Assembly (NCBI GenBank): GCA_963847445.1
Contig: CAWJZV010000030.1
Span: forward strand, 566,257 to 630,256
Direction of reading: 5' to 3'
DNA: 64,000 nt
Origin: an uncultured delta proteobacterium
GTDB lineage: Bacteria; Desulfobacterota; Binatia; UBA9968
Below are positions 34,670 through 44,951 of this stretch, in pieces (the stretch's first letter is position 1; each line of letters starts with the position of its first letter). The notes below the pieces were generated by a model. It ran no database searches and was not told the DNA's origin. It was given only the letters and a program-made list of their open reading frames with translations. The position numbers and the translations under genes were made by a program.

Positions 34670-35670
34670 ATGAAAGCCTGCGCCATCGACGTTCATCACC
34701 ATTACGTGCCGGAGAGTTTGCTGGAAGAGGCGAAGAAGCGCGGCCAACATCTCGGCGTTACCTTGACCGAGAAAGACGGCCATCGCTCGCTTTCTTTCGC
34801 CGGCGGACCGCCATTCCAATTGCATCCGGAGTTGCCGGCGATCGACCAGCGGCTCAAGATGATGGAGGACTCCAAACTCGCCATGGCGGCGTTGGAAGCC
34901 CACACCGCGACCTTGGGCTACCGCCTCACCGGCGAGCAGGGCGAGAACTGGTGCAATGTCTACAACGACGGCATCGCCGAGTTGGTAAAAAAATATCCCG
35001 ACCGCTTCGTCGGCATGGCATCGGTGCCGCTGCAAGATCCAGCGCGCGCGGCCAAGGTGCTGGAGCGCGCCGTGCGCGATCTTAACTTGCGCGGCGGCTA
35101 TATCGGCACCAACGTCAACGGCAATTACTATGACTACCGACGAGTTCGATCCCTTCTGGGCCAAGGCGCAAGAGCTCGACGTCATGATCGTCATGCATCC
35201 CGAAGACGTCGCCGGCGCCGACAAAGATGAATCCCTACGGCTTGAAGCTCATCTGCGGCAACCCCGCCGACAGCGCGCTCTGCTTCGGCTACATGACTTA
35301 CAGCGGCGTGTTCGACCGCTTTCCCAATCTCAAACTCTGCATCCTCCACGGCGGCGGTTTCTTCCCCTATCATCTCGGCCGCTTCGACCAGGGATGGCAG
35401 GTCCGCGCCGGCGCCCGCGCCGCCAAGGCCAAGATGGCGCCGAGCTCTTATCTAAAAAACATCTACTACGACAACATGATCTACCGCCTCGACACGATCA
35501 AATACCTGATCGGCCTCGGCGGCATCGACCACATCATGGTCGGCACCGACTACCCCTACGATCTCGGCGATTGGGACGCGGCCAAGAAAGTCGAACAGCT
35601 CGATATCCCGGAAGCCGACAAGATGCTGATGCTGGAAGGCAACGCCAAGAAGCTTCTGCGAATTAAATAG
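34670..35670 (+). CDS. Amidohydrolase family 2 (ACMSD-like), frameshifted
   Basis: IDVHHH, ASVPLQDP, MHP, LHGGGFFPY, VGTDYPYD. Confidence 0.88.
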
Positions 35671-35690: not shown

Positions 35691-35727
35691 ACAAAGGGCA
35701 GGCGTGGCAATCACGTCTGCCCTTTGT
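35691..35727 (+). terminator. Strong hairpin after the amidohydrolase (probable terminator)
   Basis: acaaagggcaggcgtg-gcaat-cacgtctgccctttgt. Confidence 0.6.
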
Positions 35728-35758: not shown

Positions 35759-36036
35759 CACCGCGAAGGCACGAAGGACACGAAGGTTTCGCATGGATCA
35801 TTTCCGAACTTCGTGATCTTCGTGCCTCCTTCGAAAATACATGTGCGCGATGATCTGCGCGTCGATGAACGACTGCATCTGTTCCGTCATACCGGCGAAA
35901 GCCGGTATCCATCCCCCTCCCACCCCTGGATGCCGGCCTGCGCCGGCATGACGAGTCAAAGGAACATGTGCTGCTGGGAGGGTTGCAATTTCATATCCGT
36001 GGACGAGCGTAAGCTCATGAATCACTTCGTGGTGAA
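35759..36036. mobile_element. CACGAAG/CTTCGTG hairpin repeat carrying a ~197-bp nested non-coding element (35828-36024)
   Basis: Right arm is split between duplicated CT; the insert matches 44733-44939 at both termini and contains a CGTC-REP doublet. Confidence 0.7.
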
Positions 36037-44711: not shown

Positions 44712-44951
44712 CCTTCGTGAACTTCGTGCCCTCCTTAGAAAATACTTGTAAGGGGAGGGTCTCACAATGAAGAGGTCACCTGGGTTCCGTCATACCCGCG
44801 AAAGCGGGTATCCAGGCTAATTGGGCGCAGACCAAACCTGGATTCCCGCGTGCGCGGGAATGACGCGTCAAGCAGACCGCCTATGGACGGAATCTCATCC
44901 ATTCTCATATTCTGTAGACGAGCGTAGGATCATGAAAGACTTCGTGGTGAG
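44712..44951. mobile_element. CTTCGTG repeat with ~207-bp nested non-coding element (44733-44939)
   Basis: CT duplicated at 44731-32 and 44940-41; termini shared with 35828-36024; internal REP doublet includes ATTCCC-N8-GGGAAT. Confidence 0.7.

Follow-up and report, generated by a model that had tools for sequence, protein, structure and literature searches.

A gene-less miniature element bearing the ends of an IS110-group insertion sequence in a split hairpin repeat of an uncultured Binatia bacterium

The 64,000-nt stretch of DNA analysed here (the window), from an uncultured member of the Binatia, carries a hairpin repeat whose right arm is interrupted by a gene-less insert. What kind of DNA is this insert, and how did it come to occupy this site? 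The region lies between a split Amidohydro_2 gene, which ends at 35670, and an opposite-strand gene of no assigned family. The hairpin repeat (35759–35825, no strand assigned) comprises the left arm, the loop, the first two CTTCGTG units of the right arm and one spacer base. Its left arm consists of three CACGAAG-type units (CACCGCGAAG at 35759–35768, CACGAAG at 35770–35776 and CACGAAG at 35779–35785). The loop of 23 nt (35786–35808) is followed by the right-arm units CTTCGTG at 35809–35815 and 35818–35824, a single c at 35825 and the dinucleotide CT at 35826–35827. An inverted-repeat search found the arms 35767–35785 and 35809–35827 to be 89% complementary. The third CTTCGTG unit is broken by the insert directly after its CT. 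Beyond the insert, CT occurs again (36025–36026, plus strand) and is followed by the remainder of the split unit, TCGTGGTG (36027–36034, plus strand), which forms the strongly conserved target flank. In silico deletion of the insert together with one CT restored the third unit and yielded a match to intact hairpins elsewhere in the genome. The initial annotation, made from the letters of the window, had described an insert of about 200 bp with a CT duplication that splits the right arm and can be removed to restore it; both its coordinates and its wording are correct.

Two further features of this locus belong to the upstream gene. The Amidohydro_2 gene is read in two overlapping frames, 34670–35230 and 35227–35670, which cover profile positions 1–122 and 161–289, respectively; the split is a frameshift, either real or due to an assembly error. 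A GC-rich, terminator-like hairpin of this gene (35693–35725) is located just ahead of the hairpin repeat; several relatives retain it at the orthologous locus.

The insert is a gene-less, 197-bp miniature element of the IS110 family at 35828–36024, which starts with CCTTCGAAAATAC and ends with CATGAATCA. It is assigned to the minus strand, the sense of the recombinase gene in the parent insertion sequence (IS) described below. The short terminus, CCTTCGAAAATAC (35828–35840, minus strand), is identical to the terminal 13 nt of the parent IS, in its right end (RE) downstream of the recombinase gene; read together with the core, it matches a guide segment of the parent (CGAAGGAG, G2 below). The long terminus (35984–36024, minus strand) spans 41 nt and corresponds by homology to positions 1–41 of the left end (LE) of the parent, which precedes the recombinase gene. 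The interior contains an inverted, REPIN-like REP doublet (35885–35953, no strand assigned), which is absent from the parent IS. Its arms, 35885–35911 and 35927–35953, are 27 nt long and 85% complementary, and a further 11-nt pairing extends the doublet. The same doublet is also found as a stand-alone unit elsewhere in the genome, in BLAST matches spanning only query positions 57–128. None of the seven inverted pairs detected in the region by the inverted-repeat search joins the two termini. The initial annotation was thus right on both the internal doublet and the lack of a terminal inverted repeat. MITEs in the strict sense possess terminal inverted repeats, which the 197-bp element does not have, and 'MITE-like' is applied to it loosely, as for the published element MITEPpu9. 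The element contains no conserved open reading frame: those found mechanically are not conserved, and the copies differ by indels.

The genome examined comprises 7.19 Mb in 48 contigs and is 91.8% complete. The motif CTTCGTGGTG occurs 147 times in these 7.19 Mb, compared to about 6.9 occurrences expected from length alone. BLAST with a 201-nt stretch gave 25 matches longer than 150 nt, which fell into two main sequence groups; all 25 aligned with the same kind of flanks and began and ended alike. Pairing of the termini revealed 49 two-ended copies of 150–265 bp. CT, which is AG in the recombinase sense, precedes the left (short) terminus in 47 of these copies, as it does at 35826–35827 (plus strand) in the window. 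It follows the right (long) terminus in 48 of 49, a count that is partly due to construction since the right side was part of the search pattern. An independent nhmmer search was performed with a profile restricted to the long terminus (44 nt), flank excluded. Of the 69 termini that extended to the element end, 63 had CTTCGTGG directly behind them, with no more than one mismatch; the other six comprise a tandem junction, a contig end, a remnant beside a CTCTGTGG flank, a register-shifted copy with the same flank, and two degenerate flanks. The initial annotation had proposed that both termini should recur in the genome, and had named copies with different flanks or no CT as evidence against its reading. 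Both termini do recur genome-wide, and the flank and the CT are retained in nearly all copies.

The insertion site is equally uniform. A strict pattern for three-unit arms detected 143 unoccupied and 31 occupied arms. Inspection of the flanks of the 49 paired copies placed 34 in a recognisable hairpin arm and 15 outside, about five of the latter being located in decayed-looking arms. In the recombinase sense, CACCACGAAG is the sequence of target flank and core in 38/49 copies. The opposite flank, on the cttcgtgc side, is weakly constrained and varies after 1–3 nt across the 49 copies. One fixed and one free flank would be predicted if the target guides were of unequal length, one long and the other short. 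The long terminus opens with TG in 47/49 copies, and the outermost heptad of the arm is the sole heptad used for insertion across all copies. Copies occur in either orientation, and in one case (contig C30, 325166–325624) both arms of a single hairpin are filled by miniature copies. On contig C18 (8986–9330), a 5'-truncated copy is joined in tandem to a full copy via a single CT, with the junction at about 9190. Beyond 272 bp, long-distance pairing of termini within this genome gave nothing but chance pairs.

The window itself contains a second copy of the family. It is 207 bp long (44733–44939, within 44731–44941), belongs to the other sequence group, and is flanked by CT and by CT-TCGTGGTG in a right arm that lacks its left arm.

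The source of these termini was revealed by related genomes. Matches to IS110-family genes were found in 20 of the 31 genomes of the genus, and their loci were scanned for the family termini; three loci stood out (L052, L053, and L068). In L052, from a relative within the genus, a 1535-bp element occupies the right arm of a hairpin, with ...cttcgtgtc-CT on one side and CT-TCGTGGTG on the other. Its first bases are CCTTCGAAAAT and its last are ...GCGTAAGCTCATGACACA; its final stretch of approximately 41 nt is that of the miniature copies. Its 421-aa open reading frame, located on the opposite strand, contains the domains DEDD_Tnp_IS110 (PF01548, E = 1.3e-32) and Transposase_20 (PF02371, E = 2.7e-18). 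In the recombinase sense, the LE is 242 nt and the RE 28 nt long; by the criterion given in PMC11208160, these lengths fit the IS110 group, as against IS1111. Of 121 genomes of the order searched with this protein, 11 gave a match at E <= 1e-40, and the genome of the window was not among them. Nine full-length loci of 1535–1550 bp, with common ends, could be delimited in seven genomes. All nine have ACCAC(G/A)(A/G)AG next to the LE and AG next to the RE, and occupy the same hairpin site as the miniature copies. One of the nine (L053/L083) originates from an unpublished genome (G005), and the conclusions hold without it. Four more copies in public records (L111, L117, L148, and L119) are alike on their readable sides. 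The initial annotation had predicted a long version encoding a DEDD recombinase. Such a version does exist in relatives, with the same termini, hairpin position and dinucleotide, and these partners do not encode another kind of transposase, which the annotation had named as contrary evidence.

The public records with the closest copies (L110–L119 and L148) display 76–100% amino acid identity, and their titles mostly refer to Candidatus Binatia or delta-proteobacterial metagenome-assembled genomes (MAGs). Two records with the same IS, 82–83% amino acid identity and the same flank (L111 and L119) are titled as Actinomycetes and Verrucomicrobiia MAGs; their placement could reflect mis-binning or horizontal transfer.

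Relatives that carry the IS also hold miniature copies, or 41-nt termini in surplus of their IS copy number. Among the matches listed for one of them (G119), 11 of 13 cover the terminus only (query 149–189), compared to four recombinase-gene matches in that genome, three of which are full-length. Another relative (G009) has full-length miniature matches.

The LE of the parent IS holds two guide-like segments, which in the LE alignment are located behind conserved scaffolds: G1 after GAGCCCG and G2 after GAGCACG. G1 (LE positions ~114–122) reads (C/A)CACGAAG, which equals the target flank plus core, in eight of the nine loci, and the segment continues with TG, the first two bases of the element. 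In the ninth locus (L084, from another genus), G1 is CACAGAG and the flank is ACCACAGAG. A k-mer comparison gave a G1 match of 7–10 nt in all nine loci. When the covarying GACACAGAG of L084 is counted, G1 corresponds to GACACGAAG in 8/9 loci, and its fit to the inner heptads is better than to the outermost heptad, where insertion takes place. G2 (LE ~185–192) reads CGAAGGAG, which equals the RE end plus core. The full 8 nt are matched in five loci, and 6 nt (AAGGAG) in the other four, in which the RE ends differ by one base.

A second IS lineage, with 57% amino acid identity and five copies in one chromosome, retains both scaffolds and has different guides. Its G1 is GTTCGGAAT after GAGCCCG, and the flank is also GTTCGGAAT in four of the five copies, the fifth being a tandem; its G2 is TGTAGCAAT after GAGCACG, and its RE end is CGTAGCAAT. 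Both G1 and G2 thus change along with the target and the end, in a variant of the parent (L084) as well as in this second lineage. RNAalifold analysis of seven LEs predicted 60 pairs, five of them with compensatory changes, that form two hairpin modules within a long closing stem. Both guides are placed 3' of their hairpins in this model, with part of G2 paired. An Rfam search of three IS loci, including the parent LE, matched no family and gave nothing near the gathering score; no sequence-level homology of the LE RNA to an Rfam model was found. The parent LE appears to encode a two-module RNA, the predicted layout of which matches the bridge-RNA logic of IS621. As candidates for the short guides we considered UCCU after G1 and GAAUC after G2, and also a 5'-side guide in the first loop. 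The initial annotation had suggested a bridge RNA complementary to both flanks. For one side, a corresponding segment is present: in terms of the plus strand of the window, G1 is the reverse complement of CA-CT-TCGTG and covaries with the target. The flank on the cttcgtgc side is weakly constrained.

The miniature copies retain the ends of the IS and little else. In blastn comparison of the IS loci with the genome, LE positions 1–41 matched the long miniature terminus at 85–95%. In an alignment of 55 rows (49 miniature copies and six ISs), conservation is 80–100% over these 41 nt and over ~14 terminal nt at the opposite end, and then drops to 40–60%. The interiors form several mutually unrelated lineages, each with multiple members and constant termini. 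They contain one REP doublet or another, some with an extra REP, and one lineage of 150–157 bp contains neither. The guides are practically absent from the miniature copies: an internal CACGAAG was found in 1/49 and an internal CGAAGGAG in 0/49. With one mismatch allowed, GAGCCCG and GAGCACG occur within 19/49 and 30/49 copies, respectively, which is uninformative for 7-mers in GC-rich DNA. Having neither the gene nor the guides, the miniature copies would need both recombinase and bridge RNA in trans. Copies at unlinked loci have common interiors that are absent from the IS and up to 98.4% identical. The short form was therefore amplified as a unit, and repeated deletion did not produce it.

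With a probability of roughly 0.85, the insert derives from an insertion sequence of the IS110 group and is a non-autonomous form that lacks a transposase, as had been proposed in the initial annotation. Its termini (13 + 41 nt), hairpin position and core are common to the nine full-length loci that encode a DEDD recombinase. Three other explanations were weighed against this one. The junctions can also be read without any duplication, as those of a Y1 HUH single-strand element (IS200/IS605-type or RAYT) that inserts just 3' of CACCACGAAG; the CT repeat would then be coincidental with the element end, and the Y1 mechanism would yield the same junction sequences. The lack of a terminal inverted repeat, the subterminal and internal hairpins with the inverted REP doublet, and the strong conservation on one flank only would suit such an element. 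The genome also has four Y1_Tnp matches, three of them over the cut-off, including two intact genes of ~275–307 aa. However, the long elements detected with these termini all code for a DEDD recombinase of the IS110 type, and the TnpB-type domain PF07282 has no match in the genome. The termini are constant across lineages, in contrast to the REP doublet, which lies inside the element and changes from one lineage to another. The target specificity of IS200/IS605 elements is usually 4–5 nt, and the 8–10 nt observed here are longer. The RAYT-like Y1_Tnp genes of this genome were rejected as partners: they display no link to the family termini in the genome-wide pairing of these termini, which gave no long pair. 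A Y1 origin is therefore very improbable and, given the identity of the long partners, excluded in practice.

According to another explanation, each short copy would be a solo-ends relic, produced in place by a separate internal deletion of a full-length IS, and would never have moved as a short element. The parent IS was once present in the lineage, as evidenced by an LE remnant on contig C24 (see below), and the window copy is old, inherited together with those of two related species, with its own history not directly readable. Separate deletions would not, however, produce the same non-IS interior, up to 98.4% identical, at unlinked loci. The several interior lineages with multiple members each, and the ratio of 49 paired copies to no full-length element in this genome, also argue against them; this explanation is very improbable and, given the common non-IS interiors, excluded. 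Least probable of all is a host-functional structured RNA or regulatory element that only resembles mobile DNA. The region does fold into long hairpins, and it is located in a 3' intergenic region past a terminator-like hairpin. Yet an Rfam search of the window region gave no match at gathering score, the best being a 23.9-bit match of a miRNA model on the hairpin versus a cut-off of 82 bits. Furthermore, the interiors are unrelated between lineages and rich in indels, and the copies occur in either orientation, sometimes in both arms of one hairpin.

The IS110-derived element in the window is not a recent arrival. Its nearest paralogue is only 83.9% identical, and two further species of the genus (G014 and G002) carry the same insert, in diverged form, at the orthologous locus. 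Being common to these species by descent, the window copy is older than their split. At the same locus, G004 has an oppositely oriented copy that belongs to the other sequence group, and G015 and G046 have no repeat at all. No clean filled/empty pair was found at the three orthologous loci compared (the window locus and those of two young copies), where the differences are larger, composite gains or losses. Across these three loci, the whole repeat cluster is missing in G015, G046, G003, and G004.

The present genome appears to offer no partner for the element. The recombinase of the parent was not found in this 91.8% complete assembly (best tblastn E value 0.30), and neither was a full-length partner or a guide-bearing LE. 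The single IS110-family gene of this genome (contig C15, 7071–9500; L031, L036) belongs to another lineage, its ends are unrelated, and it is interrupted by an IS3-type element with orfA and orfB on the other strand. On these three grounds, lineage, ends and the IS3-type break, it was ruled out as a partner. A truncated remnant of the parent LE is located on contig C24 (185457–185567). It covers LE positions 1–115 at 76–77% identity, lies beside a ACCACAGAG flank, and stops just before the guide segment. The assembled genome thus contains neither a recombinase of the parent lineage nor the guide RNA, and the window copy is old and probably an immobile relic.

A mechanism in the manner of IS621 can be proposed. 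The miniature element consists of the recombination ends only, 41 nt of the LE and ~13 nt of the RE, with unrelated filler between them, here the REP doublet. The complex of recombinase and bridge RNA from a full-length copy would take the joined ends of the miniature element as donor and the outermost heptad of a hairpin arm as target. Strand exchange at the CT (AG) core would then leave one CT on each side. Mobilisation of the miniature element in trans, expression and the predicted fold of the RNA, and circular intermediates are inferred for this mechanism. The joined end-CT-end junction anticipated in the initial annotation was indeed seen, on contig C18 at ~9190 and at the IS locus L080 of a relative from the same taxonomic family, where a full-length IS and its AG are directly followed by a second left-end start. 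The L080 arrangement could represent a tandem or, alternatively, a circle junction that was assembled; these junctions attest tandem arrangements and are no proof of circles.

More tentatively, base pairing with the bridge RNA may be only part of the recognition code of this IS110 lineage, and a cis-acting donor structure and gating by the target hairpin may complement it. The 41-nt left terminus, including a small hairpin, is kept in all miniature lineages and in the ISs, as compared to ~9 + 9 nt that are paired, which points to a cis-acting donor structure for the recombinase. The guide matches the inner heptads at least as well, yet insertion always takes place in the outermost one, where the hairpin has its base, which suggests that the target hairpin acts as a structural gate. 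Were this doubtful proposal true, natural miniature elements would show which minimal donor and which target gate a bridge recombinase requires.

The closest published counterpart is MITEPpu9, the ssr9 module of ISPpu9 (IS110 family) in Pseudomonas putida KT2440; ISPpu9 has AG at both sides (PMC12288879). MITEPpu9 resembles the window element in being gene-less and bounded by sequences similar to both ends of an IS110-family IS, but differs in containing an sRNA gene and in occurring in eight copies, five of which adjoin the IS. The family described here comprises at least 49 dispersed copies with several interior lineages, no known RNA gene, REP doublets, and no parent IS in the assembly. No other descriptions of dispersed IS110-derived miniature families were found in a literature search of limited coverage; a 2026 preprint mentions tandem non-coding repeat units beside IS110 transposases (10.64898/2026.08.14.744561). 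The insert is thus of a kind already known from MITEPpu9 and represents no new class; it is well-supported but fairly ordinary selfish DNA.

The parent IS shares with IS621 and the IS110 group a recombinase with DEDD (RuvC-like) and Tnp domains, a long LE, a short RE, and the lack of terminal inverted repeats. As reported for IS621, it also has REP-like targets, a CT core, two predicted, pseudo-symmetric RNA modules, and guide-like segments that repeat target and donor including the core (PMC11208160, PMC11208158). The target guides of IS621 comprise one of nine bases and one of four (Durrant 2024, PMC11208160). The two long guides of the parent are identical to the recombinase-sense strand, with AG as core; they could correspond either to the LTG/LDG of IS621 or to its RTG/RDG plus handshake positions, read on the other strand with CT as core. 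Unlike IS621, the window element is a non-autonomous form without guides. For ISPpu10, another member of the IS110 family, a target-encoded stem-loop has been described as a second layer of specificity, and its recombinase was reported to act in trans on split donors (bioRxiv 10.64898/2026.03.19.712850). Like the family described here, ISPpu10 inserts next to or in a conserved stem-loop (10.64898/2026.03.19.712850). By analogy, a stem-loop layer of this type is a possible reason for the constant choice of the outermost heptad. REPIN/RAYT systems and miniature elements derived from IS200/IS605 resemble the window element in their inverted REP doublet, hairpins, lack of terminal inverted repeats and single conserved flank. 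In the window element, however, the doublet is cargo and does not form the ends, and the long relatives encode a DEDD recombinase.

The family provides a natural set of 'minimal donors' for a bridge-RNA recombinase lineage, i.e. dozens of gene-less copies with unrelated interiors and 41 + 13 nt retained, together with a natural series of targets (~143 empty and ~40 occupied hairpin arms). The choice of the outermost heptad and the conservation of the terminus beyond the paired bases could guide experiments on the donor and target requirements of IS110-type elements. With regard to annotation, a large share of the intergenic repeats in this genus can be explained as nested selfish DNA, not as regulatory RNA. 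Many of the hairpin repeats are also adjoined by a separate unit of ~55 bp, which contains a small GCGGC...GCCGC hairpin and is bounded by direct copies of CTTCGTGGTG (e.g. positions 1440–1500 of locus L005).
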